A stretch of 53,618 nt of DNA, counting the filler, from Jimgerdemannia flammicorona (taxonomy: Eukaryota): assembly GCA_003990765.1 (NCBI GenBank). It is 3 parts of 3 records of this genome, joined end to end, with 100 filler letters (N's around TTAATTAATTAA, not from the genome) between each part and the next. Parts side by side here need not be neighbours in the genome. Positions count along the whole stretch, not along the records: positions 17,908 to 35,713 come from RBNJ01002399.1; 2 more parts are not named here. The stretch is one strand, 5' to 3'. Positions within the stretch are counted from its first letter, which is position 1. Each line of letters begins with the position of its first letter. The notes below the pieces were generated by a model. That model was not told the origin of the DNA. It made no database searches and was given only the letters and a program-made list of their open reading frames with translations. The translations under genes were made by a program, and so were the position numbers. Below, piece after piece: positions 3,946 through 44,169 of this stretch.

Positions 3946-3949
3946 CCAT

Positions 3950-6900: not shown

Positions 6901-8900
6901 TCTTGAAGTAGAGTAACTTCATTCTTGTACTAATCAATATTTGGATTATATTTGGTAAGCTAGGATTTTTCTAAGATCAGATCATAATCTCTTAGTAATA
7001 TAACTTCTCATTTTCAATATTTCTAAATCTTAATAGATAGTTTAATAATAATTGACTTAATAAAATATAGTATACTATCATAGTAATTATACTATTATTC
7101 TTGGATACTAGTTTGATAAGGATCTTGAGGTTTTTATAAGATTCTAATTGATGAAGTTTCTTGTAGCTCTACTATCTATAAGTATTTGAACTTCTTTTCC
7201 TTTAACTAGATTTTTGAAAATGAGTATAGCTTGAGCTTAGTTTTCAGTAAGACTTGCTACTTGATTAGTACTATTAGTTTCACTTAGTTTCAAATAGTTT
7301 TTAGACTTCTGTAACCTTAGGTTGACTGACTTTTTCTAGGATTATTTATATAACTTAGTCTCCTTTATTAACTATATAGTCTTAATTTTTCTAATTGATG
7401 AGTAAGATTTAAACTTATTCTCAATAGTCCGAGTTAATAATATTAATATCAATATCTAAATAATATTTGATACTGAGTTCTGATTATAGTATAATCTTAA
7501 CATAATATTCTTTAGGATATTAGATTATAATTCCTGTAAGCACTAGAGTTTGGCCTTTAGCTGGAATAGTGACTTATTTGATGGAGTATAGGTCAAGGCC
7601 AATAATCTCTTCTGATTGATATTAAGAGATCTGGACCTTCAGATAAAGCTTTTTAATTTTAATTTTAGGTTGACTAATAGTAAAGCTAATAGATATATCC
7701 TTGAACAATATAGTAACTGGTCTTGAGAGTTCACTGATCTTTTTAGGATATTTGGTTGAAATTTATCCAATTTGATAACAGAAGAAGTAAGCTTCAGATT
7801 TCTTTAGATGATCTTTTTCTTCTGAAATAAACTTGGTATTTTTCTTATTCATAGTATCTAAATCTATTAGTGTTGGGCTAACTACTTTGGGTTGGTTCTT
7901 CTGATGGTTCTCAAAGTAATTCTTCTTATAGTACTCTGGTTTAAAACAGTTACTAAAGATGATGATATCAAACCTATTAGCAATTTTCATAGCTTTATTG
8001 AGAGTCTATAACTTCTTCAGCTTGATCTTAACTTGTATATTTCCTTTCAGATCTCAGATATAGTGATCTATCTTTTCATCTTCAGCTATTACTAGTAGTT
8101 TGAGTAGAATTGACAGAAATTATACATTATAACTTTATATAGACTTAAGTTACTTAATATTTACTAGCTTATATCTAGCTAGTATAATAGCATTAATAGA
8201 CTTAAACTACTTATAGAGAGTCTTCTTAAAAGATATCTAATCTTGAATTCTTATATCTAAGTAGATAGTAGTTATTATGATATAATTGTACTACTAAATA
8301 GCTGTATTTTCTTAAAGAAGTGTAGTGACAAATTAGACTTATATATCTTCTTTTATTCTTGTAAGTTCAAAGTATTGGTCCAACTGAAAGATCTATATAT
8401 ATATCTGTAGTCAGTTCTCCTTAGTAACTATTAAAGATATCTGGCTTTAGCAGCTTAAAGCTAACTGATATAGTAGTAGAATATGATATAGTTATAGTTC
8501 TTATTTTCTGATATTTTACTTATACTTAAAGTAGTCAGATCTGATAGACCATAGAGATAATCATTTTCTCTAAGTTGACTTATAGTTCTATCATCTGCTT
8601 CTTCTATAATAGGGGAGTTTAAACAGTAAGCTGGTTCTCTATAATTTATTTAGACTTATGTAACTAGTTGTGACTAATTTCTTAATAAGATAAAATATAA
8701 TAATACTACTACTATCAAGTATAATAGTTTTAGTTTCTTTAAGAGAAAGTAGTTAAATCTAATAGTTTTGATGGGCCTAAAGTAGCTCAAAGAGATACTT
8801 ATAGATTTAAGTATTCTTGAAGGAGTTTTGAGAGAAAATATTCTAAGCTTTATTTAGATAGAAAATAATAATATTTATATAAAATCTAAAAGAAAGATCT
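3950..8900 (-). mobile_element. Heavily mutated Ty3/Gypsy gag-pol (different family from the neighbouring element)
   Basis: Minus-strand remnants in RT-RNaseH-integrase order: YLDDILI (about 5525-5550), FNLTIIYKSGKILIVSDILSR (about 4745-4805), VTMDFVT (about 4315-4335), IVSNYDSKFTS (about 4120-4150). Riddled with TAA/TAG stops. Boundaries approximate. Confidence 0.75.
6037..6650. mobile_element. Foldback/MITE-like element with about 290-bp inverted arms, inserted in the Gypsy pol
   Basis: Starts ta-gtactctaaataag and ends ctcatttggagtac-ta. Internal arms are reverse complements (e.g. 'aataatcatccaattttgat' about 6207 vs 'atcaaaattggatgattatt' about 6482; 'catttgaaag' vs 'ctttcaaatg'). TA on both sides; no ORF. 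Confidence 0.8.
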
Positions 8901-9843
8901 AGAAGAATCTCAGAAAAAAAAAAAAAAAAATTAAGAAATAAGTTCTTGGCAAAGATGATTAATAGAATTCTATAATATTCCAAAAGGTTCTATAACTAGA
9001 TATTTAATACTGCTTAATACTAAGAAAAGACAAAAAATATTCTAGTAATATCAAAAGATTTTTAGATATTTGAAAAATACTAGAACATAGTAGAATATTC
9101 AAGAAAAAATAAGAAAAGATAAGAAAAGATAGCAAAAGATGTGAAAAGGTATTAAGACTAAAATATAACTATAAAATTATTACAATTTAGCTTCATAATT
9201 ACTCTAAAAGTAGAAATTATTCTCATTTTTTAAAAACAATCAGACTATATATAACTTTTACAATAAATGATATCATAATAGATAGACTTAAATTTCAAAT
9301 ATTTATATATATTAAAACTAATCTGTTTTTGATTTATTTTTAATTTATTTTTAATCTTTTTTTAAATATGAATTATTTTCTTATTTATCTTTAGATCTAA
9401 TATATTTTAAACTCAATATATTTTTATTATTTTTAATATAATAATATAAAAGATAAAAGATAAATTAATAAATTATCAATTATATATAAATAGATTATAA
9501 AATTAAATGTAAAAATAAATTATATAAACTAATTATTCTTTTAATAATAGAATTAAATTTGATTTAACAATTTTTTTTTTATATTTAAATAATCCAATAG
9601 ATATTAGAAAGATTAATGTTTTCTTACAACTATAAAAATCAGATCTCTTGGAAAAATAGTAATACATCCTTACTGTCAGCTCTTGTACAGCTTTCTGGCT
9701 CTTTTATGCAGCCTTATGCAGCCTTCACTGCATAGTGTATACACAAAAGGGCGTAGTGAGAAATAATCGCGTGGACTTACAGTCACAACATGTTCGCTTC
9801 TGGTTAAGTCTGTAGCAACAAGACCCATTCCAATCTCAGCACC

Positions 9844-17807: not shown

Positions 17808-17907
17808 NNNNNNNNNNNNNNNNNNNNNNNNNNNNNNNNNNNNNNNNNNNNTTAATTAATTAANNNNNNNNNNNNNNNNNNNNNNNNNNNNNNNNNNNNN
17901 NNNNNNN
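17808..17907. other. Scaffold gap (Ns with TTAATTAATTAA spacer)
   Basis: 100 nt of N interrupted by a stop-in-all-frames linker; identical format at 35714-35813. Assembly artefact; true length unknown. Confidence 0.97.
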
Positions 17908-18085: not shown

Positions 18086-20400
18086 GGAACCTAAGACCAA
18101 CCTCCAGAATGCTACCAACTTAGTTCAGGAATATAATTCCCTAAATAACTGAAACCTGAATACTCTAACACCTATCAGTATATACTATATATTACCTTCT
18201 GAATAGTATAATTATTATGAACCAAATCAAGAACTCAGTAAGTTAAGACAAAAGAATACTGACCTTCTAGAAAAATAGCAAAACTGAAAGCCAGCCTATT
18301 CTCCCCATACCACTGGTGGGAAATGAGATATAGACATTTAAGAAGATTCCTTAGAGGAAATTCTTCAGCAGTGAATGACATCAGGATCACTTCCAGCATA
18401 CAGCATTGAATACATGACCCTTTAATATGTGAATCCAATATGTTAGGCAACTGTACTATGAGCATACCACTTTCTGAGAAAAATAGACTTCACCAGACTT
18501 TTGATCTCCCAAATGGTATAATAACACTAGAACAAAATTAGAAGGTCCTGACAAGGATGTCAAAAGCTAAGAAGGGGAGAGTTGTAAGCATACAACCTCC
18601 AAGCCACAGAAATCACATGTCACCCTCTGAACAAGCCACTAAAATCATATGCAACCTCTGAACAAATCTGGAAATCACCTGCATGATCATGAAGCTGAGT
18701 CAAACCAAAGTCACAATACACAAAGCTGAGTCAATATGAAGTCACAGAATATAAGATTCACACAAACAGAATCTTACTAATCAGGACCAAATATATATAT
18801 ACTGAGTACCAAGATACATTGAAACAGAGAACCAAAACAAACAATAATCACAACTTCTAAACATATATAAACATGACCACCGAGATCTATAACCACATCC
18901 GCACTGACATTTGAAATACCATTATCAACCAAGCTATACCCTCTCTACCCCTCATGAATATCCATAGCCTAGCACCCCTCTACTTTGTGGAAGCCTGATG
19001 GAATGCCCTGAATATGCTTAGCAAGGCCCACTGAATTGGACAAATCTCAAGCTACTACTAGATCAGCCACCTCCTGGAAGATATGGTTGAACACCCAGAT
19101 ATTACCCAGATGTCCCAATACCAGAAACTCATTGCCTGCAAATATTGAGAACTCTTCTACAAGTATAGTACTGTTATTCTTCACCTCCAAGTTACTACTG
19201 CTGAAATAGTTGCTACTCTGTCCTATGGCCAAATTGATGACATGATACAAGAACTCAACCACAAGTACCTTGAGTATGTTGAGACCACAGACAGAATCTT
19301 CCCATACCCCAACAACCATATTCTGCAAATGCCTCAAGTTGAATATACCATAAAAGACATCTACAATATAATTTAGTTTGATAAAGATGAAGCAGAAGAC
19401 AATGATCCCTCCGACACTGACATGACCTCAAGCCAAGGATCCCTGCCAACTCTGATCACACCACCAACCTTGCTAATGAACTTACAACAGTTCATAACCA
19501 CCTATAAGACCTACTGGGACAATGACTACTGATATAAATATCAATCTGCATTCACTCTCAATTACTTCAACTACAATGAAGAGACTGAAGAACACAACCT
19601 ATATCTTTAGACAACCCTCGAGATCAAACCAACAACTCCACTACCTGAGTACAAGCAATATGAACCACAGCTGCCAGCTTACTACAACTCGTGACTCATA
19701 GTACTATAACCTATAGAAGATATGCAGACAGCAAATCTGATAAAAGCAAAGATGATGCACTACTCTTTCACCCCCAACACCTTATCCAGCATATAAGACA
19801 GATGATGCTATCCTGTGGGATAGTGACAAAGTCCCAATATATTACTATCTCAGTAAACAAAGAGAAGTAATTTGCAAACCACTCTTCCTGGATGACTACT
19901 TCATCAGAGATGATGTCATTGATAGTGATGTCATTGAAGACTACCCAGACAGCATCTAAATCTATAAATAGCCTAACAGTTATAGTATAGTTAGATTAGC
20001 CTTATAGGATGTGACTGTGAACTGACTCAGCAGTCAGATAATCTCTTGACATATCAGATCACACTTGTACTATGTGACTGCATTCTGACATAGCAAAGTA
20101 CTAAGTACTATATCTATATTGAGCATAATCCAGATAGCCCCTCACTAGTATAAATACCCCCTCCCCCAGACCTCAGAATCTCAGACCTGAACAATCCAAA
20201 CACAACCCTGAGCACTTCTCTACAATATCCCTTTATACAACTACTCTTAGTATAACAATATTATAAATAGCAAATAAACCTATTTAATAACCTACAAACT
20301 ACTCTTAAATAAATTCACTTCCTATTAGGTCCCACTTCTAACCCCATCATGAAATTTCCTAATTAGGTATTGTCTGCAGCGATATACCAATTCAACTAAG
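18085..20400 (+). mobile_element. Degraded LTR-retrotransposon 3' fragment with a divergent copy of the accessory ORF (from 18873) and an LTR-like end
   Basis: The frame from ATG 18873 reads MTTEIYNHIRTDI*...SYY*ISHLLED...ELFYKYSTVILHLQVTTAEIVATLS plus an acidic tail, colinear with ORF 49920-48973. TATA-like motifs near 19962 and 20149. Boundaries approximate. Confidence 0.5.
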
Positions 20401-20637
20401 CTGGTCTTAGTTTCTTGAACTTCTTGAAATATGGAAAATCCTAAATATCCAGAACTAGTTCAAAAAAGGACTTTGGTTGAGATGTCAATCCAATCTTGAA
20501 ATCAATAAGTGTAGAGGGTGTACTCCATATGAAATTGATCTTGACCATAAGAAAATGGTCTTTCAGAATATCCAGAACTTCCAGAAAACTCTTCCAGAAC
20601 TACATAACAGTTACCCTAAAAAAGCAATTCTCTTACA

Positions 20638-21386
20638 GTTGGGATAGGAAGAGAGATGGCTGTCACAGATAGGAGAAAGGGTGATAACAGTGAATTAGTA
20701 TGGTGTTAGGCTGGGGGTGGTCATCAAGGCTGGGGCAGATACTGCTTCAGTGGGGCCTTTTGATTGATACATCACAGTTAGGTAGTAGGTATCACTCTTG
20801 GCTTCTTTTGGCGATTCAGTGAATTGGGCCCTAGTTGTCAGGGGGGGTCGGGGGGCCCAAGGCTACCTATTTCAGATATCTTGACTATACTCAACTGGAA
20901 CTGAGAGCTGACATAGCAATGTGATTGAGGCCTATAGGCTTGAGTAGTGGGGTATTGGGGGTCTTCTCCCACCTCATGTATAAGTCCTTTACTTACCTCA
21001 ACTGGGAGAACTAGGCCCTACCCACTATGTTGTACTTTGATGAGAGATTTTCTTTATCTGTTATTCTCTTTAGAGTGGCAGAGGCTATTCTATTCAGCTC
21101 AGGCATGACCTTGTATATATGTTGGGTTCTTGGGCATGTGCTTTTGGTCATTTACATATGGCTGAGTTTTCCCTGGTAGTAGAGAGAGCATGGTGTGCAG
21201 AATGAGGTGCAGGCTGTCATTGGGCCTGCTGCATCTAGTATAGTCAAGCTGCTAGACAATAACTAGCCTAGATTAATAGAAGGGCAGTGCTTGATGGGTG
21301 GTGGGGGAGGGTTTTGGCCTATATAGTCTAGGTTACCTTCCAATAAAAATCCGCGGGACATGAGTCCGTAAAACAAAAAAAAAAAA
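20638..21386 (+). mobile_element. About 750-bp non-coding polyA retroposon (SINE-like), copy 1
   Basis: Colinear over its whole length with the reverse complement of 43094-43867. Ends aataaa...ggacatgagtcc...An. No ORF. Confidence 0.75.
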
Positions 21387-24300
21387 GATAAGAAGTTAGG
21401 AAACTGTTGGAAATGAGGAAAACAAGAATAAACAACAGTTTGAAAAGAAGAAAGAGAAATGGAAAGGTTCAAAAAAGAAATACTAGTCATACCACACATC
21501 TAAGTAATAAAATGATGGGGAGGGTAGATACTATAGAACACACTAGGGATATCAATGTCAGCAACAGCAAGAACAATAAAGTCATTGATATATCAGCAAA
21601 AGAAGATATCCCTAGTCCAGAATGCAATAGAAAGAGGTGATGAAGGATCACATATCATATGAAGTTCATGGGCCAGGCCAACAAGGTTGGTAAGGATGAG
21701 GGTATAATTCATTCTCATGACAATACCAGAAGTCTGATGAAAGGAGCCAAGGACTGACTCAAAATAATTAGAGCCACAGATGAGGAGTGTAAGCTCAACA
21801 ATAGAAGCCCACAAGACTGGGGAATCTAAAGGAAAGATAATGAAACTCAAGAAGCAAAGATAATTATCAATTTCATCAAAGCAAATAGCAGTGTAGAAGG
21901 AGGAAAAATCACCAGAGGCCAAATGGGAAAAATGGTGAACAGGTACAATGGTGGAGCAGAGAAGGGTGAGCTCCTGAGTATCATGAAGAATAGTATACTC
22001 AGGCCCAAGATGGTGTTGTAGAAGAGCCATCCAGGAGAGAAAGAAGTGGGATAACCACTTGGAAATCTCAGTGATAGGGGAGCTAAAAGTAGCTGTAATG
22101 GGATGCCAAGCCAAAGTAGGCTTATGGACTTTAGGAAGAGTATAGAAAATTGAAAGATAAATGTCAACTGAGGACAAAGAGTCCTGGAAGAAGTTAAAAA
22201 TGGGGTTCACAAAAGGAGAATCTGAAAGTAGTCTAGTATGAGCCAGAGAGACCTGAAGGAGAGTGAGAACCTCATCCAATCCAAGAGCACTAGGCTTGTA
22301 AGCCATGGTTCAAAGGAGAGCAGAAAGGCCATCAAGATAGAGTGACTTAGAAATAAGTACAAAACCCTGATTCTTATAGCAAGTATATAGGCAATTGCTT
22401 GACCGATTTAAGTACAATATGTATGGCACAGTCCAAAATCAAGCAAGAGTGAGTATGTCCAGGAATGGACAGCATGTAAGCCATGTCAAGGAATATGCAG
22501 TGTGAAGAGATATTGGGAGGGGGGGCCCAATCACTAGGAATAAAATAGTAAGAGAGCATCTCACTATGATTTTTGAAGAAAATGGTAAGGTTAAGAGCAC
22601 AATGAAAATATATGAGACAAGCCAGATCAGTAAAGGAGAATTGTGAGAGAGTTGTAGGAAAAATAAAGTGAGGACCCAAGGATAAGGTAAAGACTTGAAG
22701 AGGAGAAAGGAGGCAGTCAGGTATAGAAAAAGAAGGAGACAAAAGTATTCCAAAAGAAGAATAAACCCAAAAATTCAAGACAAGCAACTGGGAAAGATGA
22801 AAGGGGAACAATATGAGGAATCACTTAGGACACACCAGAAGTGATGATAGAATCTGAGAAGAAATGGGGACACCAGGGAAGAACTATGCTGGGGGTAAGT
22901 TTAAGAGCAGGAGGCCTTCCCCTTCTCTCTGACTTTTTTTGAAGATGGTGAACCCAACAAATGGAAGCACTCCCCATCAGAGTGCCAGATCTTATAGCTA
23001 TAGGCTTTTGTGCAGCCCTTACATTTAGAGGCATAGATAGAGAAGGCAGAGAAGGAACCAGCAGAGGAGACAAAGGGAGAGTGAGCAGCCAAAGGAGCAG
23101 CAGTGCAAGGGACACCACCATGGGGGCAGATGGACTTGGATAGGTACCAGTAGGCATGGTGGAGGTGACCAGGGCAGATGGCACAAGACCAGGCCCTGAT
23201 GGGGTGAGAACCAAGTTAGTGGCCATACTTAGGGGCAGGGGAACAGAGGAGGAGGCCTTGGTGGAGAAGGGGGACTGGGAAGAGGCCAACAAAGCCTGGT
23301 TGGACTTAGTGGGAGTCTTGGCAGGAACCTTGGCTGTGGCAACAGCAAAGGAACATATCTTAGCATGGGCAGTGATATGAGTCTTAGTATGGATGGCCTC
23401 AGAGACTAAAATCTCAGAGGAGATAGGCAGGGGAGTAGTGGTGGTGGCATGAGTAGTGGCAGCAGCATGTGACATTTCCTGCTCATAAAGACAAGTGACA
23501 AAAGAAGTGCCAGCAAGAAGGAAATGATGAATAGTATTGATATTGGCAGCAGAAGAGGGAATATCTTAGACAATAAAGCTATAGAAAGGGATAGTATCTG
23601 TAAGACAAGAGGAGGTGAAGGCCATAAAAGTGGTACAGGTATAGTAGAAGAAGATGAAAGTGGCAGCAGCAGAAGTAGCAGTGGCATCAGCAGTAGCAAG
23701 CTTAGTGGTAGCAGTGGTGGTGCAAACCTCTTTAGAGAGGGCTTGACAGCAGGCCTCAGAAAGAATAGAGTAGCAGATGGCAGACAGAGCAATGATGTTG
23801 ACTTTATGGTGGAGACAAGCCTTCTTGGTAGAGAGGGCAAGAACTGACCAGAACTGAGAGAGGAGCAGATGACCAGAAGGATGAAGGTCCAGGGGGAGGA
23901 AGAGGATGGCAGATGAGATATAGGTCTCAAACAAGATAGTGGTAGAGACAAAAGCAGAGGGAGGAGGAGAAAGAATCTTGTCCATAATCTCATCAATGAG
24001 AACAGAGGCCCCAAGGGCAGACAGTATAGCAGAGGAGGAGGAAGGCCCAGTGGGAACCATGGGAGCAAACCCAGAGGCAGTGTCAAAGTGAATAGAAGAC
24101 ATGTGAAAGAGTATATATAAGGGAGACAAATAAAGAATATAACCAAAAATGCATCAGCCATTTAATACCATATAAAAATGTGGTCCTTATATATAAAATA
24201 TAATGTCTTAAAAGAGAGGACATACCACAACTCAGAGTGAACTGAATTAGAAACTACATGATTACTAGAGATAAGCAGAGATAAAGAGGGAGCCAATCCC

Positions 24301-24532
24301 AGTTGCAGGATAAAAATCACAAACAAACACAAACAAAACAAATTCAAATCAAGATTAAAAAACATCCACAGACCCCAGAGGGGTGAGCACAAGTGAGGGG
24401 TGAGGCTGAAATAGAGTGAGCCATAGTAAGCTCAAGCAAAGTGAGGGGCCAAAGACAGCAGAGGGGAGTGGAGTAAGGCCAAGATCCCAGAGTGAGTACA
24501 AGACCCCAGAGAGAGCAAGAATATTTTTTAAT
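21387..24532 (-). mobile_element. Penelope-like retroelement (PLE), copy A, 3'-truncated and degraded
   Basis: ORF 21593-22306 has PLE RT motifs FYTLPKVHKP..W(R)PI, GDFSSFYT, NYF...FHQTSGI(AMG), L(A)NL, then *YINDF. KNQGFVLI (DKG-like motif) lies upstream. Upstream ORF remnants include CKGC-x8-H-x4-C. Confidence 0.85.
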
Positions 24533-27500
24533 CTCAATTTGGATTTGTTTTGTTTGTATTTGTTTGTAATTTCTATCCTATAACTGGGATTGGCTCTCTC
24601 TTTATCTTCACTTATCTCTGGCAATCATGTGGTTTCTAATTTAGTTTACCCTGAGTTGTGGCATATTCTCCCTTTTGGAATGTTGTATTTTGTATATAAG
24701 GATTGTATTTTTATGTGGTAATGAATAGCTGATATATTTTCAGTTATATTCTTTATTTATCTCCCTTATATATACTCTTCTACATATCTTCTATTTGCTT
24801 TGACACTGGTTCTGGGTTTGCTCCCATAGCTCCCACTGGACCTTCCTCCTCCTCTGCTGTACTACCTGCCCTTGGGGCCTCTATTCTCATTGATGAGATC
24901 ATGGATGAGGTTCTTCCTCCTCCTTCCTCTGCTTTTATCCCTACCACTGTCTCATTTGAGACCTATGTCTTGTCTGTCATCCTCTCTCTCCCCCTAGACC
25001 TTTGTCCTTCTGGTTGTCTGCTCCTCTCTCAGTTCTGGTTGGTTCTTGCTCTCTTTGCTAAGGAGGCTTGTCTCTGCCATGACATCAACATCACTACTTT
25101 GTCTACTGTCTACTACTCTGTTCTCTCTGAGGCCTGCCACCAAGCCCTCTCTGAAGATTTTTGTGCTACCACTGCTGCCACCAAGCTTGACACTGTTGAT
25201 GCTGCTGCTACTTCCACCACTGCCACTTCTGCCTCCTTCTACTGTACCTGTGCTACTTTTGTAGTCTTTGCCTCCTCTCATCTTATAGATACTACTCCTT
25301 TCTGTAGCTTTGTCATCTAAGATGTTCTCTCTTCTACCACTAACATCAATACTATTCATTATTTCCTTCTTACTGGCACTTCTTTTGTTACTCATCTTCA
25401 TGAGTAGGAAATATCACATACTACTGCCACTGCTTGTACTACCACCACTGCTCCCCTGTCTGCCTCTCCTGAGATTTCAGTCTCTGAGGCCATCTGTGCT
25501 GAGGCTTGTACCACTGCCCATGCTGAGGTATATTCCTTTGCTGCTCTATGGCCAAGGCCCCTGCCAAGACTCCTGCCAAGCCCAACCAGACTTTGTCAGC
25601 CTCTTCCTGGTCCCCCTTCCCAGCCAAGGCCTCCTCCTCTATTACCCCTGCCCCTAAGTATGGCTGCCAACTTGGTTCTCACCCCATCAGGGCCTGGCCT
25701 TGTGCTGTCTGCTCTGGTCACCTCCACCATGCCTACTGATACCCAGCCAAGTCCATCTGCTCCCATAGTAGTGTCTCTTATGCTGCTGCCCCTTCAGCTG
25801 CTCACTCTCCCTCTGTCTCCTCTGCTGATTCCTCCTCTGCCTCCTCTATCTGTGCCCCTAAATGTAAGGGCTGCACAAAAGCCTGTGACCATAAGGTCTG
25901 GCACTCTGATAGAGTGTGCTCTCATTCATCAGGTTCACCACCTTCAAAAAAAGTCAGAAGAAAGGGGAAGGTCTCCTGTTCTTAAACTTCCTCTCAGCAT
26001 AGTTCTCCCCCAGTATCCCCATCCCTTCTCAGATTCCATTGTCACTTCTGGTGTACCCTGAGTGGTTCCTCATATTGTCTCTCCTTTGTCTTTCCCAGTT
26101 ACTTGTCTCAAATTTTTGGGTTTATTCTTCTTTTGGAATACTTTTATCTCTTTCTTTTTCTTTAGCTGACTGTCCCCTTTCTCCTCTTCAAGTCTTTGCC
26201 TTATCTTTGGATCCTCACTTTGTTTTTCCTGTGACTTCCTCACAATTCTCCTTCACTGATCTGGCTCATCTCACATATTTTTGTCATATTCTTGATCTTG
26301 TTATTTTCTTTGAGAATCATAGTAAGATGTCCTCTTGCTATTTTATTTCTAGTGATTGAGCCCTCCCTCCCAATGTCTCTTCACACTGCATATTTCTTGA
26401 CATAGCTTATACACTGTCCATTCCTGGATGTACTCACTCTTGCTTGGTTTCTAACTATACCATATATACTGTACTTAAATTGGTCAAGCAATTGCCCATA
26501 TACTTGCTCACAGTTACTAATAAGAATCAGGGTTTTACACTTATTCCTAAGTCACTCTATCTTGATGGCCTTTCTGCCCTCCTTCAAACTGTGGCTTATG
26601 AGTCTAGTACTCTTGAATTGGATGAGATTCTCCCTCTCTTTCAGGTCTCTCTGGCTCATGCCAGATTACTTTCAGATTCTCCTTTTGTAAACCCCATTTT
26701 TAACTTCTTTCAGGACTCTTTGTCCTCAGTTGACATTTATCTTTTGATTTTCTATACTCTTCCTAAAGTCCATAAGCCTACTTTGGCTTAGCATCCTATT
26801 ATAGCTACTTTTAGCTCCTCTATCACTAAGATTTCCAAGTAGTTATCCTGCTTCTTTCTCTCCTAGATGGCTCTCCTACAACACCATCTTGAGTCTGAGT
26901 ATACTATTCTTCATAATACTTAGAAGCTCACCCTTCTCTGCTCCACTATTGTACCTGTTCACCATTTTTCCTATTTGGCCTCTGGTGATTTTTCCTCCTT
27001 CTACACTACTATTCACTTTGATGAGATTGATGATTGTCTTTACTTCTTAGATTCCATTGTCTTTCCTTTGGATTTCCCAGTCTTGTTGGCTTCCATTGTT
27101 GAGCTTATGCTCCTTGTCTATAGCTCTAAATATTTTTAGTCAGCTCTTGGCTCCTTTTACCAGACTTCTGATATTGTCATGGGAATGAATTATACCCCTA
27201 TCCTTGCCAACTTTGTTGGCCTGGCCCATGAACTTCATGTAATATGTAATCCTTCTTCACCTCTTTCTATCACATTCTAGGCTGGGGATATCTTCTTTTG
27301 CCAATACATTGATGACTTTATTGTTCTTGCTGTTACTGGTATTGATATTCCTAGTATGTTCTATAGTATCTATTCTCTCTATTATTCTATTACTTAGGTA
27401 TGCAGTATAACTAGTATTCCTTTTTTGGACCTTTTTATTTCTCTTTCTTCTTTTTGAACTATTGTTTATTCTTATTTCCCTTATTCCCAATAGTTCTCTG

Positions 27501-27998
27501 ACTTCTTGTCTAATCATCCTCATTACACTCTTCTTGAATATATTTATAGTAAGGCTCATCATCTTGCATTATACTGCTCCCATCATTCCAATTAGATATC
27601 TGCTGTTTGGGTCCTTGACAACTTCATGGTCTATCATCATACCTATCCAATTTTTATTATTTATAATCTACTTGCTTCTGTTAAATAGTTTGTTGTTCAC
27701 TCTTTCCTCCTCTCTCCCTATTACCCCCCCTTCTCTCCCTCTCTCCCCCCTTACCCTCTCTATACCCCCTCTTCATTCCTACCTCCAATTCTCATCATAT
27801 TATTTGATCATACTCATTGGATTGATTAATGCTCTGACACTGTCCTGCACTCTTCTCTTTCATGCCATAGACTTTTGTCACTTTCTTAATACTCTCTAAT
27901 TACTCATTCACATCTTTCTTCTGTTTCTTCTTTAATTCATCACTCTTGTTTTGCATTTTTGTTACCTTCTGGTACCTCCAGCTCTGCTAGAGAGAATT
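24519..27998 (+). mobile_element. Penelope-like retroelement, copy B, inverted relative to copy A; complete RT, no endonuclease seen
   Basis: 24519-27510 is the reverse complement of 21387-24367. The RT frame includes TNKNQGFTLI, FYTLPKVHKP, GDFSSFYT, QYIDDFIV, IPFLDL and SNHP, and ends near 27998 with no GIY-YIG motif. Confidence 0.85.
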
Positions 27999-28502
27999 AA
28001 AAAATATCTTTACCCCCTCTGGGGTCCTGCACTCACTCTGGGGTCTCAGCCTTACTCTGTTCTCCTCTGCTGCCTTCGGCCTCTCACTTTGCTCAGACTT
28101 GCTGTGACTTGCTCCATTTCAGTCTCACTCCTCACTTGCACTTACCCCTCCAAGGTCTGTGGATGTTTTTTAATCTCGATTTGGATTTGTTTTGTTTGTG
28201 TTTATTTGTGGTTTTTATGCTATAACTAGGATTGGCTCCCCCTTTATCTCTACTTATCTCCAGTAATCATGTGGTTCCTAATTTGGTTCACCCTGAGTTG
28301 TAACATATCCTCTCTTTTGGAATGTTGTATTTTGTATATAAAGACTACATTTTTATGTGGTAATAAATGGCTGATGCATTTTCAGTTACATTCTTTATTC
28401 ATCCCCCTTATATATATATGCTCTTCTACATATCTTCTGTTCACTTTGACACTGGCTCTGGATTTACTCCTATGGCTTCTGCTGGGCCTTCCTCCTCCTC
28501 TG
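27996..28502 (+). repeat. Pseudo-LTR of the PLE (direct repeat of the element's 5' 500 bp)
   Basis: 27996-28174 matches the reverse complement of 24354-24532, and 28161-28502 matches 24519-24856. Partial terminal repeats are an established PLE feature. Confidence 0.85.
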
Positions 28503-28509
28503 GTATATC

Positions 28510-30050
28510 TTTTAGACTAACTATAAGTTTGTTATAAGTAAGTTCTTATTGGAGTACCTTCTTAAGATCTTATAGTTCTCAAACTTTTTATCTTTAAACT
28601 ATCTTATTATCTCTTAGATTGCTTGTATAGAATTGAGTATAAGTGAACTGAGGAAACTGACTTTATTTTAAAAAGAAAATGAGAGGAGTATTTATACAAA
28701 ATATAATTCAATGGTTACTAAGATATAAAGCTAAATATAAATTCTAATAACTAAATAAAATATTGGAATATTGAAAACTTCAGTTATAAGTACAAATTTA
28801 AGTATCTATATAAATAGTTACATATGTTCAGAATGCTGATAGATTTCAGTACTATAAGAAAAGGATACTAGAAGATTCAGATATTATAAAAAACTTAGAG
28901 CAGAATATTCAGGACCCTAGGTGCTTCATCTTTATCACTATCATTAAGATTAGAGATTGGAGACAGAATGTCTTGAAAGGAGATGAGGTCAGTGAATGTT
29001 TTATCTATCTTACATATTTTACATATGTTGCCAATTAGCAGAATGATATTATCACTGATGATGTCATTGTGGATGACATCATTATATTCAGTGACAGAGA
29101 AGATATTAAGGAGATCTGGGGCTCTCTAATCTATGACATTCTCTTCTACAAAATAATGGACAAATGTGGGGTCTTGGGGGGATCTAATCTGGATGCTGGG
29201 GCCTTGAAATACTGAGATCAATTCTTATAGGAATTGATCAGAATTGTCCTTAAGGATAAGATTCCAGAACTCTCCTATCTCATTACTATTAAGAGTAATG
29301 GTAGGTTGGACTTCTGTAGCAACTATAGCTTTCAGTGCATTGATATAGTAGGCTGACAATTCCTTGAAGTCTGAGACTTTAGTATACTCTAAGTTGAAGA
29401 TAAACTATAGTATATGTCTGAAGATCTGATGAATCTTCTTTACTATCCTTATTTCATATGCATCTATAGAAGTAGCATCTTGAATCTCTTGGGGACTGGT
29501 CTGAGGGAATTCCTGGCAGAGGAGATTTCCTATTTCATATTTCTGCTACATCTAGAGACATTTAGTAGCAATGGTAATCCTTGTTTCCATTTTATAAGAG
29601 TAGAGAATAAAGTGATAAGGGTCACAAGTACTTAGGTTGAGACTAGGAGTTCTTGTGTGAGTCCTCATGGCTCTTCTGATATCTTGGAACATTCTTTCTT
29701 AGACTGAGAATCCATGGCAATTCTTGGATCTTGAGGTTTGGTAAGCAGTAGGTATTTTATTTATAGTAAGTCTTTGAACTATTTTAGAGTTTTATATATC
29801 TTATTTGAGTTACTACTACTATAATTCCTTAGTCTTTCTTTTATATTCCTTGAGATATCTATCTTGTGGTCATGATGACTTATGATTGGTCATTATTACT
29901 CATCTTATAGCCTGGGTGAGTCATGTTATATGATTTTTTTGTGCTCTGATCTGGTGGCTTATAAGAAAAGACTATCTTCTATAATGATGTCACTATTCTG
30001 AGATCACTGTTACAATATGTTGAGTCAATCCTGAGGCAGATTTGCACTTT
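28510..30050 (-). mobile_element. Degraded Ty3/Gypsy 3' fragment carrying the accessory ORF
   Basis: The minus frame at about 29730-29300 reads RMFQDIRRAM...QKYEIGNLLCQE...KKIHQIFRHIL*FIFNLEY. Nucleotide similarity to 2100-2690. Boundaries approximate. Confidence 0.7.
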
Positions 30051-30487
30051 AGGTTGTAGTATAAGTAAGAAAGCTTTATATTTATATTAGATTTGAAAAG
30101 TAGAGAAGAATTTGAAGTATAATATTTTGAGTTTATAAATTTTAACAGTAAGTTTATTGGTAAGTTTATGAATATGAAATATACTGATCTAATATAGAAT
30201 TCTTTATCTGATTAGCTTTACACTTTTGTACTTATATATATAATATACTTATACATAGCACTTATGCTTACTTAATATACTTGTACTTGCTTAATGTACT
30301 TGTGCTTACTTAATATACTTATATATCATCATATTAACCAAATATAAGTAAGCAAGCTTTATATTCACTTATTAAACTTTCTGATATATATATATTCATT
30401 ATAAATATTACAGATACAAAAAGAGATCTTTATCTAGAAAAATTGTATCTTTTCTTATTTCTCCCCTTACTATAATCTCTTTATGCC

Positions 30488-31325
30488 GTTGACCTCAAGG
30501 ACCTGTTGGAACGTACCCTGCCCGCCACCACGACCCCCTCCGCCGCCAAACCGACTGCCCTACCCTCTCCCGACTACTACACCACCCTTCTCTCCGAGCT
30601 TGAATCCATTGGCTGGCATCGCGTCCACGACATTGACCCCTCGCTCGCCGAGTTTTCCATCCACATCACCGACACCTCCCGCCGCACGCACAAGTTGCAC
30701 GTGCGCCTCCCGGCCACGTACCCGTTCTCTGCACCTGCTATCACGGCCGACCTACCCGTTGCCGCCGCGGGGGCCGAGGGCAAGGGGAAGAGGCTGGCAG
30801 CGCTGGTAGAGCATTTCACGGGCGAGGTCAAGCGGTATGCTGATCTGTGGGATTGTCTGGACGATCTGGATGGGCAGACCTGGAGACTTGAGCCTGAGAA
30901 GCCCACGAGGGCAGAGGCATGGAGAAGGCTCGCATTGGGTGGGTTGCAACCACTGCTCTCTCCAGCTCGACCTAGACCCGACGGATCCAGTGCGGTCCCT
31001 ACGACCCACCTCTTCGGCCCAGAGCCGCGTATTGCGCCCCTTCGCGAAGCCATGGCGCGTAACCTGCACCTATGGTCTCGCGACCAGACCCCCCGGGCGA
31101 ATCTGGAACGCGTGCTGGGCATAACATTCCCCATGGGGAGTCTGCGGCGGGCGGGGCTGGAGCGGACGTTGAGTGCGGCATTTGCTACGCGTACAGGGAC
31201 TCCATCGCAAGTGCTTATTTGAGTGGCTTCGCGCGATCCCGTCAACACGCCAGAGTTTCAACATGCTGTTTGGCAACTGCCCATACTGCAATGAGGCGAT
31301 GACGACGACAATGGTTGATCGGTAG
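30488..31325 (+). pseudogene. FANCL: FANCL (Fanconi anaemia E3 ubiquitin ligase) homolog, 5'-truncated and frameshifted
   Basis: DLKDLLER, YYTTLLSELESIGW, LWDCLDDLDGQTWRLEPEKPTR, NLERVLGITFP, ECGICYAYR, HRKCLFEWLRAIPSTRQSFNMLFGNCPYC are spread over different frames. Shifts near 30945, 31010, 31135 and 31200; part of the RING and the N-terminal domain are missing. Confidence 0.85.
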
Positions 31326-35574: not shown

Positions 35575-35615
<41 letters not shown>

Positions 35616-35713
35616 TTTTTTTTTTTTGTTTTTTTTTTTTTTTTTTTTTTTTTTTTTCCTACTATATTTATGAATAAACAAACTGTAGCTCTTAATCATA
35701 TATTGGTCAGTCT

Positions 35714-35813
35714 NNNNNNNNNNNNNNNNNNNNNNNNNNNNNNNNNNNNNNNNNNNNTTAATTAATTAANNNNNNNNNNNNNNNNNNNNNNNNNNNNNNN
35801 NNNNNNNNNNNNN
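35714..35813. other. Scaffold gap (Ns with TTAATTAATTAA spacer)
   Basis: Same linker format as the first gap; flanked by polyT and polyA runs. Confidence 0.97.
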
Positions 35814-36560: not shown

Positions 36561-37855
36561 TTTATCACTCCAGAGGTCAATCACCTCTCTATGCTTTGCC
36601 TCAACCCCTGCCCATACTCTTTGGCTCCAACTTATTTCTTCTCTCTCATTTCTCAAGAATTTTGATATTTATTAAAATTTATTGAAATAATTACATTGAG
36701 TTCTTCTTTATATTATATATTTTTCTAAATCTCTATTATTTACCATATACTTAATAAGTATTTTTTACATTTTGAATAATCTCTTTATCTCTTAAAAGTA
36801 ATTTGAACTACTGATCTTAGAAGTTTTAAACCCTTGATATAAATATTAAGAAATTATAATATTATCAAATTACTTAAATTTTAAAAGAAAGAAGATACTA
36901 AATTTAAAAATTCTGAACTACTTAAAGTACTAATAATAGTTTACTGATACATATATCTAAATTTACAATATATTAAATATTATTATTTAGTATTTTGATT
37001 AACTTTTATCTCATATTTCTTATATAGATATTGACTAGATCTTGGTTAAAAATATCTGTTACTATTTTATTCTCAAGGTCATTTTTGTTAATATATATAT
37101 ATATATATATATAATATATATTAATAATTAACTCTTGTTCATTATCTCATCTATTATAGAATTGAGTATTATAAAAGTTCCTCATTTTTTGAAAAATTAA
37201 CAACTTTTTAATTTAAAAAATAGTAATATATTTCATTTGGATAAGTTAGTAACATTGGAGTAAAAATTCAATATTAAGTATATTTATATAGTAGAGTACA
37301 ATAATATAAGCTGGAAGCAAATAGTATCTTATTTCAATTAGCATATAGTGAAGTTGATGTTTCCTGTAGAGTTGATTTTTCCCAGTGACCCTGAGTATGT
37401 TCAGATGATCAAACTGCTAAAAGGAATCAGTATTTCAATCGTGCTGTGGGTTGATTTTCAGACGCTCCAAAACCCTTTCGCACCAGCACAAAATCACGTT
37501 CTAGCTGCTTGGAAGGTAACCTCATCAGCCATCATACTGAACTGTGCAAGTTCTTTGTTCTTTTGACATATCGTCAACTAGAGATACGAGCTTAGCCAAA
37601 TTTTCGCCTAGGCATACCACCAGAAAAATAATCTAATATGAGGGACACTCTATGTTCGAAAGTAACTCAGAGGCTGGGTTATTACGAGTATAATAATAAT
37701 AATAACAATAAACAGTTGTAAAGGACATTGCTCATAGTTTAGCTTGGAAGAGGATTGAGGCTAGGGACTCAACGTTGTCGGTCATATTTAGCGTCAAACT
37801 GGTTATAGAAATAAAATTCATTAGATGACGCGCTTTCCTGCTCTTCGAGCCACAG

Positions 37856-39092
37856 AATCTTGCGGAGGCGACAAAAGTAGCAACAATACTTTGCGAAAGC
37901 GACAACAGTACCCTGCAGAAGCGACAACATTACCTTGCGGAAGGGATGAAATCTTGCAATCTTTCGAAAGCGACAAAATCTTACGGAAGCGACATCTTGC
38001 GAAAGTGACTCAAGCTTGCGGAAGGACTCAATCTTGCAAAAGCGACTCAATCTTGCGGAAGCGACTCAATCTTGCGGAAGCGACTCAATCTTGCGGAAGC
38101 GACTCAATCTTGCGGAAGCAACAAAATCTTGTGAAAGCGGCAAAATCTTGCGGAAACGACAAAATCTTGCGGAAACGACAAAATCTTGCGGAAGCGACAA
38201 AATCTTGTGAAAGCGGCAAATCTTGCGGAAACGACAAAATCTTGCGGAAGCGACACAATCTTGCGGAAGCAACTCAATCTTGGGGAAGCGACAGAATCTT
38301 GCGGAAGCGAAGCGACTCAATCTTGCGGAAGCGAAGCGACAAAATCTTGCGGAAGCGAAGCGACTCAATCTTGCGGAAGCGAAGCGACCCAACCTTGCGG
38401 AAGCGACAAAATCTTAAGGAAGCGACAAATCTTGCGGAAGCGACAAAATCTTGCGGAAGCGAAGCGACTCGATCTTGCGGAAGCGAAGCGACCCGATCTT
38501 GCGGAAGCGACAAAATCTTGCGAAAGCGAGGCAACTCAATCTTGCGGAAGCGAAGCGACTCAATCTGGAAGCGACAAAATCTTGCGGAAGCGACAAAATC
38601 TTGCGGAAGCGAAGCGACTCAATCTTGCGGAAACGACTCCATCTTGCGGAAACGACTCCATCTTGCGGAAGCGACTCCATCTTGCGGAAGCGACTCCATC
38701 TTGCGGAAGCGACTCCATCTTGTGGAAGCGACTCAATCTTGCGGAAACGACGGAAACGACGCAAGCGACACCCAATCTTGCGGAAGCGACACCCAATCTT
38801 GCGGAAGCGACACCCGATCTTGCCGAAGCGACACTCAATCTTGCGAAAGCACCACTCAATCTTGCGGAAGCGACACTCAATCTTGCGGAAGCGACGCTAT
38901 CTTACGGAAGCGATGTTATCTTGCGGAAGCGACACAACCTTGCGGAAGCGACATCTTGCGAGCGACTCAATCTTGTAGAAGCGACATCTTGCGGAAGCGA
39001 CTCAATCTTGTAGAAGCGACATCTTGCGGAAGCGACTCAATCTTGCGGAAACGACATCTTGCGGAAGCGACACAATCTTACGGAAGCGACAC
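37856..39092. repeat. CpG-rich minisatellite, core unit 19 bp TCTTGCGGAAGCGAC(TC/AA)AA with 16-, 21- and 24-bp variants
   Basis: Seen directly; degenerate at the left end and homogeneous in local blocks. It explains the stack of overlapping ORFs here. Confidence 0.95.
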
Positions 39093-39573
39093 CGAAGTCA
39101 TATACCTGATCATGACGAAATCACGACGGCCACATTCATCGTTTTCTGCATACTAGATATCTGGCACGCCAGGATTGTTTAATTGATCATTGTATGCATG
39201 TGTTCTTCCATATCTCCAAATTTCAGGGCCCTGCAGAAAACAAACTGCGTCAATCCCGTCCACTGATGCTCGGTGCGGTTTGTATCTTGACCGAGCAGTT
39301 GGGCAATCTTACGTTGGGATTGGTTTCCAATTATTCCTTTCTGCTTCTGCGACAAGGGTTCAACTCACAACGTTGGCATGATTCCCTTTACATGAATCCC
39401 GACCTTGATGACACGTATTTGGTAATAATGGATTCGATCATCAAAGAGCTCAATATAATTATATTATACATGCATGCAAGCAAAATATATATATAATGTA
39501 ATGCGACATAGACTAGGATGAACCGAAAAATGGCCCACACAATCCGTCTTCTTAGCCTCGGCGCGGTATTAAT

Positions 39574-41737
39574 TTAATCGTCCCTGCACATGCTCTTCAC
39601 GTCATCGTGCCTAGGGACAAATCTGACCTTGAAATTGGGCATGCCCGGTTGCGTCACGGTTACATCAGGCAGGGGAACCTCGACTGGGTTGCCCTGGGCG
39701 TCGAGCGGGGGCTCTATACGGAAAACTTGCACGATGCGCGAGATCAGTATGAAGACTGACTTCTCCGCCAGGAAGGATCCCGGACATATGCGACGACCAG
39801 CTATGGGGTGAGTAGAGGGAAGGGTGAGTCGGTTGTCATTAAAAAAATATATGGCGAAAGACTGAGAAACGCGAGGCGGAATGAATGTGCATATGCTTAC
39901 CGCCGAACGCATAGTGCTGACGTATGTTACCGACGTCTTCTTCTAGGTGGCGCTCCGGTTTGAACGTGTAGGGGTCTGGGTAAATCTCCGGGTTGAAGTG
40001 TATCGCATAGGAGTTGATGACGTGTGCGGATTTTGCCCTACGTGGCGAATTCAAAAAAAAAAAAAAAATGTCAACTATCAGGATTGTTAACAAAAACATA
40101 CAGGTCCATCTCCCTTTTTGCCATCACACCTATACTTACGGGATATGATACCCCTCGTATTCCTCATCTTTGGTGTTGCTGTGCGGCACGCCTAACCACA
40201 GCGGCGGCCTGAACCTAAGGATCTCGGTGAGGATGGCGCGGGTATAAGGAAGGCGTCCCTCGTCCGTGTCTCTGGGTAGACGGTCAAGACCGATGTTGTC
40301 CTTGATCTCGGCGAAGGCGCGTTCCTGGATGTTGGGATGGCTCGCCAGAATGCTGATGCCGTTCAGAAGGACGATGGACGAGGTATCGATCCCTGGGGAC
40401 AAAAAGGGTGTGAGGGGTGTCGCACTGGTGAAATTAAATATGTGAGGAAGGTGCGAAAACTTACCAGCAAAGATTAATCCACCACAGGAGTTGTAGACTA
40501 GAATAAAGAAAAGTAAATCCGTCATTAGTCACGGAAACCCACCAAGATCATGCACCATACCTTTCCCGTAATAAAAACCAAACTTACTAGCAATGTCTTC
40601 CATAAGTCCGTTCTCGTTATCCGTCTCTTGAGCTTTCAAGTACTCATTGCACGCGCAGTTGCGCTCGTTCCCATCCTTCCTGGCCTGCCTCACCTCCTCG
40701 ACGTACTTCCCAAACACCTTTTGGACTTCGAGCTGTAATAATCTGGCATTATGGACTTGGCTGCGGAGGAACGGGGACAGGAATGGGAAAAGCTCCATGG
40801 TGACATCGCTGAGGAGCTGGAGAAATTCAACCGCTATTTGAATCATTGCTTTGAAATCCGGATCGTCTTTTGTGAAGGTCTTGTTAAATAGTATAGAACT
40901 CATCAAATTGATCTGTACCGGAAGGGAGGAGGTTGAGGATTTACTATGTGACACGACGCTCGGTTCTAACGCGAGATCAACTCCTTAAGCAATCCCGCTC
41001 GACCCTACCTACACTGTAAAGATACATTTCGTCGCTCGGGTTAATTCCTTCGGGTTCGTTTCCTTTCTCAAGCAGGTTGAGCAGCAGCTGCTTTGATTGG
41101 GTGATGAAGACCTGGCTGTACTCCTTCTCAAGCTTCGACTTACTGATGGTGTTGTTGGTGTGCTTGCGCCACATACGTAGGTACGGCCCGTTCTGCGCTA
41201 AACCCCACATGATGCCGTTGGCTGAGGCTGCGTCGAGGACGTCCCACGACATACGGTCTGAATAGGTGGCACCGCGCCGATCCAATATCTCGCGGATTAC
41301 TTCAGGCGAGTTGTGGATAACCTGGCGTGAAGGAGGGGAAGAGTATTTCGTAGGTATACTTCAATGACAAGGGAAACGACCAATCCACCCGCGATGCCAC
41401 TACGATCTCTCCTTCCAAACAAGCACACGCCCCGACAACTCACCCAGGTGCGGGAGGACCCCATTTTGACAGAATAAATAGGCCCCAGGGTCTTACTCCA
41501 TTCAGAAAACTTGATGTGGGGGGACTTGCCTACAGAAAACAGATGGCCGATAATTGGCAGGGCGCCAGGCGGAGACGGGAGCTTGTTGAGCTTCTTGAAC
41601 TTCTCGGCCTCCTTGTCCTCCGGGGTGAGCAAGCGGTTGGCCACGTAGATTCCCGTAGCGGCCGCTGCGGCGGCGACGAGAGCCCCGTTGGCACTGCGCC
41701 AGTCCAGACTGGTGAGGGTATTTAGCGCTTCGGTCAT
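39574..41737 (-). CDS. Cytochrome P450 monooxygenase, 7 exons
   Basis: Exons 41737-41444, 41321-41013, 40912-40588, 40497-40465, 40392-40140, 40037-39901, 39800-39574 with GT-AG introns. N-terminal anchor, PSPPGALPIIGHL hinge, WRKH, AGIDT I-helix, EILR (ExxR), FKPERH and heme motif FGAGRRICPG. Confidence 0.95.
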
Positions 41738-41771
41738 GACAGCTTTGTGCAGGGGAAGTAGGTGGTAATCG

Positions 41772-42480
41772 ATGGAAGGAATAGGATGATCTTAAATAGT
41801 GTGGACGCGTTGATCCGGGTTACGTAACGGATTGGGAATTCCCTTATGCAGTATTGCCATGCTCTCCCTATTTAAGTAATAGTAAAACGACTGCAGATCA
41901 GAGACAATCGGTTTTAAACAGGGTTCGAAAGTTTGGTCACTGAGAGAACATTTTACTGGAAGTTTTGTTAACCGCTTTCATCACCAACAACCATCCCTAT
42001 ACGTTGGTTTGTTGCAGTCTCTTTAATCGTCGTCAAGGTGCGCGCTTTAATGACATCTGAGATCCTGGTTTTAAACTCTATGCGTACGGAACGCCTGCCA
42101 GAGTAGGTCTTTTGTGCTCGCTCTTTAAGTCCCAACTATTGTGTAAGCTAGTTTGTGCTACATTATGTATTGGCTGCCGGCTAGTTGTTATGGCGTGGCA
42201 ACTCTTTCGGTAGGCTCTCGATCACGCTTGTAACGTAAGTATGAACCAAACTGTAAATGCTCTCTTTATAATGCGGGGAGCCGTCAAGGAGCACGGCCAA
42301 CGGGCTGCATCTACGATCACACTTGGAGAGCACAATAGTTAACCGCTGGGTAACAATTAGCCAGGGCGAACAGTTAGCTATAACGATTAGCTGCTAGGTG
42401 ATGACAGCAGCTGGGTAATTATTAACAACGATTAGCCGCTGTGTGACGATTGGCTGCTACCTCCAACGTTACACAGCAGC
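41772..42480 (-). promoter_or_regulatory. Upstream region of the P450 gene, with clustered acgattagc(t/c)gct-like motifs
   Basis: Immediately 5' of ATG 41737; conserved with 35835-36560; the motif recurs at about 42350-42460. Confidence 0.55.
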
Positions 42481-43867: not shown

Positions 43868-44169
43868 AATACCTGAAAAACAGTTACCTATATCAGAACT
43901 ATGCTTGCCAGGAAGCTCACTAAAGCCAGAGAGCTCCACCACAGATACTGAGAATCTGCAGGTAACCTATACTGAGCACTTGATGCCTAAGGTCAGCTAA
44001 CTCTCTACATAACCCATGACATACTAAGACAATATCTTATTGGTGACAACAAAAGGAAGAAAGTGTGACACTAAAATAGATATATTCCAGATATATCCAA
44101 AGATACCAGAAACTATGTCCCCTTTCTCAGCTACTATTTATGTTATATACATTTTTATAATATACTTTC

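Follow-up and report, generated by a model that had tools for sequence, protein, structure and literature searches.

How Penelope-like elements (PLEs) synthesize their second DNA strand, and what causes their tandem and inverted integration complexes, are open questions in the field. Both are raised by a locus of the fungus Jimgerdemannia flammicorona, at which two copies of one element stand head to head and the change of strand falls within a 14-nt inverted repeat. A 53.6-kb stretch of DNA carrying this locus (the window, along which all coordinates count) was analyzed with respect to the arrangement of the repeats, the identity of the element, and the possible origin of the inverted junction. 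Of the literature cited, PMC3846280 (Arkhipova et al. 2013), PMC8557442 (Craig et al. 2021), and PMC13159263 are represented by excerpts, and the statements made on them are limited to these parts.

Organization of the inverted copies

The inverted arms were identified by blastn at 21386-24365 and 27511-24521 (2,993 columns, 84.6% identity), and a repeat search detected the same inverted repeat as four collinear pieces of 992, 864, 97, and 1,023 nt at 82-88% identity. The inner ends of the arms are separated by a spacer of 155 nt. A third, partial copy, T (27996-28507), was aligned by blastn with the reverse complement of 24025-24532 over 512 columns at 82.6% identity, covering the whole spacer, and also in direct orientation with 24521-24856 at 85.3% identity. 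Since T covers the whole spacer, the spacer is identified as the 5' leader belonging to the left copy (L), which lies on the minus strand, and the right copy (R) begins at the inner repeat. On the plus strand, the order is thus the inverted L with its body cut at 21386, the full pseudo-long terminal repeat (pseudo-LTR) of L with the leader, the 14-nt overlap, R, and T. R consists of a leaderless pseudo-LTR (24521-24861), a stretch resembling a first open reading frame (ORF1-like), and a reverse transcriptase (RT) ORF, followed by T as a full pseudo-LTR. The parts of the element are listed below; P0001 is the metagenomic protein described in the next section.

21386..24532, minus strand: left copy L, with full pseudo-LTR including the leader, ORF1-like region, and reverse transcriptase up to the thumb (blastn, tblastn)
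24354..24367, minus strand: inner repeat (IR') of L (exact 14-mer match)
24368..24518, minus strand: leader of 151 nt, the 'loop' of the dimer, oriented as L (aligns with 28010-28160 of T)
24519..24532, both strands: junction 14-mer, of which the minus strand is the outer repeat (IR) starting L and the plus strand the inner repeat (IR') starting R
24521..24861, plus strand: upstream pseudo-LTR of R, without leader (direct repeat with 28163-28507)
24890..26158, plus strand: ORF1-like region, rich in Ser/Thr/Ala/Pro (no homologue found)
26159..27990, plus strand: decayed reverse transcriptase ORF of R, with N-terminal motifs, NKN, RT core, thumb, and C-terminal end
27512..27995, plus strand: 3' part of the ORF present in R only (the inverted repeat stops at 27511; homologous to the C-terminal part of P0001 by tblastn)
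27996..28507, plus strand: downstream pseudo-LTR T, with outer repeat (27996-28009), leader, inner repeat (28161-28174), and then 333 nt

The 14-mer GGATGTTTTTTAAT was found, with up to 2 mismatches allowed, at 4 positions in the window, 24354-24367(-), 24519-24532(+), 27996-28009(-), and 28161-28174(+), all of which are predicted sites of the element; in the shuffle control 0.81 sites were expected, and 4 were reached in 1 of 100 shuffles. The strand switch lies within the 14-nt overlap, and nowhere else in the 3.6-kb unit is there a site able to pair with the first bases of the leader. By our own estimate, a chance joint would fall on this spot in about 1 of 3,600 cases. The location of the joint at the sole complementary site points to joining by base pairing and not to blunt end joining, and a join of this kind is well supported. 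The description given in the initial annotation, a head-to-head dimer with arms of about 3 kb around a loop of about 150 bp and with a pseudo-LTR copy showing IR, the loop sequence, IR', and the body, was reproduced in all these respects: the coordinates of the arms agreed within 1-2 nt by blastn, the loop corresponds to the 155-nt spacer and thus to the leader of L, T matches the whole spacer, and the switch of strand at the 14-bp inverted repeat was recovered as the 14-nt overlap with its four sites exactly where predicted.

At its outer end, L breaks off at the A-rich tail of an unrelated retroposon, referred to as X, with an AATAAA signal 22 nt ahead of this tail; the L/X joint is a T/AA step of the element sense strand. 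L is 3'-truncated and decayed, with stops, frameshifts, and an 11-nt deletion. The right boundary of the insertion is the end of T at 28507, which lies 28 nt before the site corresponding to the first ATG of the upstream copies. The tandem and inverted layout is the canonical Penelope insertion unit known from animal elements.

The leaders of L and T, compared over 167 nt including the outer 14-mer, are 79% identical, with 35 transitions and 0 transversions. In both minimum-energy and centroid folds the 14-nt repeat is predicted to close the leader, and in the tandem context the predicted stem gains about four further pairs beyond a bulge. For the whole leader, the fold energy was no better than that of shuffles (z -1.48 and -0.77). 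When G/C is assumed wherever any copy retains one, the inferred original match between the repeat halves is 13 or 14 of 14. The junction 14-mer could have been derived from either the outer or the inner repeat, since 1-2 G>A changes suffice for either origin.

Identification of the element as Penelope-like

A 238-aa ORF of L yielded 53 protein matches at E<=1e-3 in an exhaustive phmmer search. The Pfam scan covered 43 of the 53, the ten matches shorter than 330 aa being left out, and detected RVT_1 in 28, RVT_1 together with GIY-YIG in 2, no family in 14, and a false bacterial hit in 1. The best match, P0001, is an intact 406-aa metagenome fragment. By tblastn, its residues 1-369 were aligned with R at 26759-27862 (E 7e-74) and its residues 1-251 with L at 22138-21386 (E 3e-56). 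Within the reverse transcriptase region of R, the tblastn alignments of P0006 and P0004 start from 26159 and 26201, respectively. The nearest named relatives are from Racocetra fulgida and Gigaspora margarita.

The DKNxG consensus, the RT core, and the thumb are present in the alignment of the relatives; at the place of DKN, R reads NKN and L carries its 11-nt deletion. The thumb and the C-terminal end of R align with P0001 by tblastn. A DKN/DKG motif, RT core, and thumb are given as typical of PLEs (PMC13159263). These relatives identify the element as Penelope-like, an assignment made by homology to the matches. The family proposed in the initial annotation was thus confirmed through reverse transcriptase relatives by phmmer, Pfam, and tblastn, and what had been overlooked is that the endonuclease is absent (see below).

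Other searches were less informative. Pfam gave nothing relevant on the arm ORFs, and RVT_1 was missed in the window ORFs and in P0001 itself alike. The search for protein homologues with the decayed ORF at longer lengths gave no match. Only generic reverse transcriptases were obtained by the profile search of PDB (best E 1e-6), and in ESM Atlas the hits were unnamed animal clusters, some with HTH_animal or RVT_1, which serve as a lead only.

Absence of the endonuclease

The element is endonuclease-less. No Pfam match to GIY-YIG was obtained in the arm ORFs, and the endonuclease parts of P0016 and P0019 gave no tblastn match in the window. The ORF of R stops at the pseudo-LTR, and the homology to P0001 reaches to within about 130 nt of it; the 484 nt of R past the end of the arm (27512-27995) form its true terminus. 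P0006, P0007, P0010, and P0013, complete relatives of 611-654 aa, terminate at the same place as the ORF of R, and PF01541 is listed in none of the 13 near-length and none of the 9 longer relatives.

As to hammerhead ribozymes, neither the search of the whole window at Rfam gathering scores nor that of 21000-29000 at E<=5 yielded a match, although hypermutation could hide a decayed motif. Telomere repeats were looked for as (CCCTAA)3, the sole repeat type tried, and none was found in the window with up to 3 mismatches. The element is located at an internal, gene-bearing site of the chromosome.

Divergence of the three copies

Between L and R, 450 differences were counted in 2,979 aligned sites, comprising 432 transitions and 18 transversions (96% transitions). 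The numbers of CpG dinucleotides in the two arms are 1 and 0. Pairwise identities among L, R, and T are 84.2, 85.3, and 85.9%, with 2-4 transversions per 341 nt. For the two copies of retroposon X, 124 transitions and 18 transversions were counted in 744 nt, so that transversions per site are four times rarer in the arms than in the X pair at a similar load of transitions. Judged by the equal distances and the small number of transversions, hardly any differences separated the three copies at the time they arose, and L, R, and T are sister copies. The alternative considered in the initial annotation, that the arms belong to different subfamilies, is contradicted by these same identities and transversion counts.

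The arm differences had been expected to be almost all transitions as a sign of a shared age. The first part held, but the bias is uninformative on shared age, because it reflects hypermutation of the whole CpG-free repeat block. In 1-kb bins, the observed/expected ratio of CpG is about 0 at 1-9, 18-30, and 43-47 kb of the window, 0.7-1.5 and mostly about 1 in the gene-bearing blocks at 9-18 and 30-43 kb, and intermediate (0.26-0.6) at 47-53 kb, with the block boundaries lying within 1 kb. The repeats look fully methylated and deaminated, and the genes untouched. The pattern fits decay of methylated cytosines and not classical repeat-induced point mutation (RIP). Strict RIP as the cause of the transitions was rejected: by observed/expected ratios, both arms show an excess of TpG (1.41-1.44) without depletion of CpA (1.05-1.16), and TpA shows no increase (0.87-0.96). 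Polarization by majority rule with T failed, with 41 changes counted as C>T/G>A and 31 as T>C/A>G, probably owing to parallel hits at hot sites.

The decay differs among the repeats of the window. The block 2000-9000, with 25-33% G+C and a single CpG, contains decayed repeats. Its segment 3027-3950 and the segment 50210-51135 (45% G+C, 20 CpG) are 74.6% identical, with 204 transitions and 31 transversions, and these two copies are mutated to very unequal degrees.

For the ORF1-like region (24890..26158), homologues were searched and none was found. Given a pyrimidine content of 67% on this strand, its open frames cannot be taken as a sign of coding. The element sense strand is 66-68% pyrimidine in the pseudo-LTR, ORF1-like, and RT parts alike (21386-28507), and the skew yields long spurious ORFs in all three sense frames. 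Transitions cannot produce such a skew, which must therefore be older than the hypermutation. Comparable strand skews were observed in other repeat blocks such as 1-2000 and 44001-47000.

Comparison with known Penelope-like elements

The layout was compared with the canonical unit of endonuclease-bearing (EN+) PLEs, as represented by Pen2a_Av of Adineta vaga (PMC3846280, PMC8557442). Both have direct pseudo-LTRs around the ORF and an inverted copy adjoining the upstream pseudo-LTR, and in both one of the two inner pseudo-LTRs is shorter and the 3' boundary lies near the start of the ORF. The overlap at the inverted junction is 15 bp in Pen2a_Av (PMC3846280) and 14 nt in J. flammicorona. Palindromes are described at the 5' ends of pseudo-LTRs in animal Penelope units (PMC3846280, PMC8557442); unlike these, the repeat halves of the present element are 150 nt apart, with a unique spacer in place of a local palindrome. 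The element further differs from the canonical unit in having no GIY-YIG endonuclease, no hammerhead match, and a fungal host, and its inverted copy is about 3.1 kb and not merely a pseudo-LTR. The complex structures of Penelope are ascribed to "unique EN cleavage properties" by Craig et al. 2021 (PMC8557442).

Among endonuclease-less (EN-) PLEs, Coprina and Athena (PMC8557442, PMC13159263) share with the present element the lack of an endonuclease, a DKN-type motif, the RT core, the thumb, and a possible upstream ORF1, as far as a comparison of features goes. Coprina also shares the fungal host, and direct repeats are reported in Coprina-1_Alen (PMC8557442, PMC13159263). Coprina and Athena are described from telomeric or near-telomeric sites and carry hammerheads as well as reverse-complement telomere repeats, whereas the J. 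flammicorona element has host genes nearby and neither feature was found. In the excerpted part of Arkhipova et al. 2013 (PMC3846280), fungal endonuclease-less elements are said not to share the organization in direct and inverted repeats. What is new in the present locus is the combination of an endonuclease-less fungal element, an internal site, and the canonical tandem and inverted layout.

A literature search found no title or abstract on PLEs in Glomeromycota or Mucoromycota. A metagenome scan with the alignment of the relatives detected 10 loci at 24-31% identity, none of which belongs to the family of this element, and a scan of viral contigs with P0001 detected no family member. Among the distant metagenome contigs, L002, L006, and L008 end in direct repeats of 126, 233, and 93 nt that are 99.6-100% identical, which looks like the signature of a tandem or pseudo-LTR arrangement. 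Contig L005 holds an inverted repeat of 470 nt. L003 and L010 appear to overlap, as their printed ORF ends start with the same residues, and would together give ORF-A, the RT ORF, and ORF-A head to tail. Of the 10 distant loci, the Pfam GIY-YIG domain was detected in L004 only.

Formation of the inverted junction

At least three routes lead to the same product, namely fold-back of one complementary DNA (cDNA), cross-priming between two cDNAs, and fold-back at the level of DNA. Of the fold-back self-priming proposed in the initial annotation, the join by paired repeats stands, but fold-back of a single cDNA is only one of these routes. Both the timing of the join at the cDNA stage and the participation of two cDNAs instead of a single one are inferences. 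Taken together, cross-priming and one-cDNA fold-back make a moderately probable explanation; cross-priming of two cDNAs by itself is put forward tentatively as the first choice among the single routes.

According to this proposal, the whole block 21386-28507 would have arisen by one retrotransposition event of the endonuclease-less PLE at a chromosomal break. Two facing DNA 3' ends would each prime a cDNA, so that the 3' ends of the two copies lie on the outside. At their inner 3' ends, the cDNAs would be complementary wherever the element has an inverted repeat, and the end complementary to the first 14 nt of the leader would pair with the complement of the inner repeat located 150 nt downstream on the other cDNA. 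Each of the paired ends would then be extended on the opposite strand, achieving second-strand synthesis by cross-priming and leaving one leader between the arms. If both cDNAs were full length, no flap would have to be removed, and one leader in either orientation would remain once the central mismatch is resolved. R would have retained the full 3' end, that is, the end of the ORF and the downstream pseudo-LTR, and L would have been shortened later, probably on insertion of retroposon X; C-to-T hypermutation would then have separated the three copies by about 15%.

Cross-priming is slightly favoured because an element without endonuclease must use existing DNA ends, and because in vitro extension of both target strands has been demonstrated for a purified Penelope-like enzyme (PMC11167929). 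In addition, R has 996 nt without counterpart in L (484 nt of the ORF and the 512-nt pseudo-LTR). Such an excess is compatible with two separate cDNAs, whereas a copy made with L as its template could carry it only if L lost sequence afterwards, and the asymmetry of the arms weakens one-cDNA fold-back.

Several points weigh against cross-priming. The enzyme that extended both strands in vitro bears an endonuclease and comes from a lizard element (PMC11167929); the case is made from a single locus; and the product is identical to that of one-cDNA fold-back. L lacks a canonical start site at its outer end, and its joint with X fits a later insertion, of the type of long interspersed nuclear elements (LINEs), into a longer L, and a later insertion of X into a longer L would remove the argument from asymmetry. 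Furthermore, no long target duplication was detected by purine/pyrimidine-coded local alignment of the flanks (137 and 145, against 192 and 197 for shuffles), and at the outer end of L, truncated against X, a short target duplication is unreadable.

Both target 3' ends prime in LINE-1 twin priming, and the two cDNAs are joined by microhomology to give an inversion. The present case differs from twin priming, in which one RNA gives an inverted 5' segment of a single copy, in having two near-complete copies and a dedicated repeat. Snap-back of the 3' end of a cDNA, which then self-primes the second strand, is a side reaction in vitro in classical cDNA cloning; to our knowledge, hairpin-primed second-strand synthesis is not known as a route of integration.

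For the J. flammicorona element, the 3' end of one first-strand cDNA, the complement of the outer repeat, could have snapped back in this manner, paired with the inner-repeat complement lying 150 nt behind it, and self-primed the second strand, the hairpin then being opened and copied into a palindrome. The plus strand does read as the strand of such a hairpin (antisense arm, inner-repeat complement, leader complement, junction 14-mer, and sense arm), the stem closes the leader in the predicted folds, the arms were near-identical at birth, and the L/X joint at a T/AA step allows a formerly longer L. However, R could not exceed its template and yet is 996 nt longer, so that a later loss of about 1 kb from L is needed, and no remnant of the missing sequence was found to the left of L by purine/pyrimidine-coded local alignment. 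The stem is A/T-rich, with fold energies that, as described above, do not exceed those of shuffles, and extra steps are required: the RNA has to be removed, a 3-kb hairpin opened, and a second DNA end captured. One-cDNA fold-back is thus possible but somewhat doubtful. Arkhipova et al. 2013 (PMC3846280) argued for self-priming from palindromes at inverted junctions, and the idea of self-priming is therefore not new. In the excerpted part of that paper, self-priming is discussed as priming on an antisense template, and the snap-back of a cDNA is not met there.

A palindrome could also have been formed after an ordinary insertion, if a break by the leader was resected, the strand folded back at the 14-nt repeat, and host polymerases made the second arm, the inverted duplication then being broken and healed. 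Palindrome formation by fold-back at the DNA level is known from yeast and ciliates. The same geometry of the junction is expected from such an event, and a duplication that breaks should leave arms of unequal length, one of them bordered by foreign sequence, as seen with X at 21386. A chromosome-scale rearrangement would, however, be required, yet host genes are in order beside the element, and the head-to-head layout is a trait of the PLE family (PMC8557442, PMC3846280); this origin is considered unlikely.

Two independent insertions could have abutted by chance, as PLEs favour A/T-rich targets and their own pseudo-LTRs (PMC11167929), but the 14-nt overlap exactly at the sole complementary site, the equal divergence of the three copies, and their very few transversions make such a coincidence very improbable. 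Least credible of all is an assembly artefact: tandem and inverted structures of Penelope are said to trouble assemblies (PMC8557442), but the 450 differences in 2,979 arm sites let every read be placed uniquely, the imperfect 14-nt overlap cannot make a false join, and arms 15% apart exclude a collapsed repeat or a chimeric read of a perfect palindrome.

The layout agrees with self-priming or mutual priming of DNA copies, without being proof of it, and a single decayed locus by itself is an added example and not a mechanism. If the inverted join recurs, the architecture would stem from the side of the reverse transcriptase and the RNA, and the 14-nt repeat would become a concrete sequence to be mutated in vitro. 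A more general view would be that an EN- PLE lineage in fungi of the arbuscular-mycorrhiza type colonizes internal sites by using the two ends of a break as primers, that the 14-nt repeat serves as a built-in device for second-strand priming on the same or the partner cDNA, and that the architecture is owed to the reverse transcriptase and its RNA and not to GIY-YIG; in this breadth the view is speculative and at present rather unlikely.

Genomic surroundings

The host genes and the two copies of retroposon X are as follows.

30476-31219, plus strand: host gene 2 kb to the right of the element, with FANCL-like UBC domains 2 and 3 (E 3e-18, 6e-15)
40139-41791, minus strand: host gene for a cytochrome P450, split over at least 3 exons
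20106..21386, plus strand: first copy of the unrelated retroposon X, with AATAAA signal and A-rich tail (21370-21386)
43108-44394, minus strand: second copy of retroposon X (blastn 20651-21394 vs 43854-43108, 81.6%)

The match between the X copies extends to about 20106 by purine/pyrimidine-coded local alignment, giving X a length of at least 1.28 kb.

A tandem array of 58 copies of a 19-nt unit (79% matches) is located at 37957-39092, with an observed/expected ratio of CpG of 1.55, within an open frame of 443 codons at 37825-39156(+). Runs of 44 N are present in two pairs (17808-17907; 35714-35813), with 12 bases between the runs of each pair, and a run of 79 T (35579-35657) lies directly ahead of the second pair.

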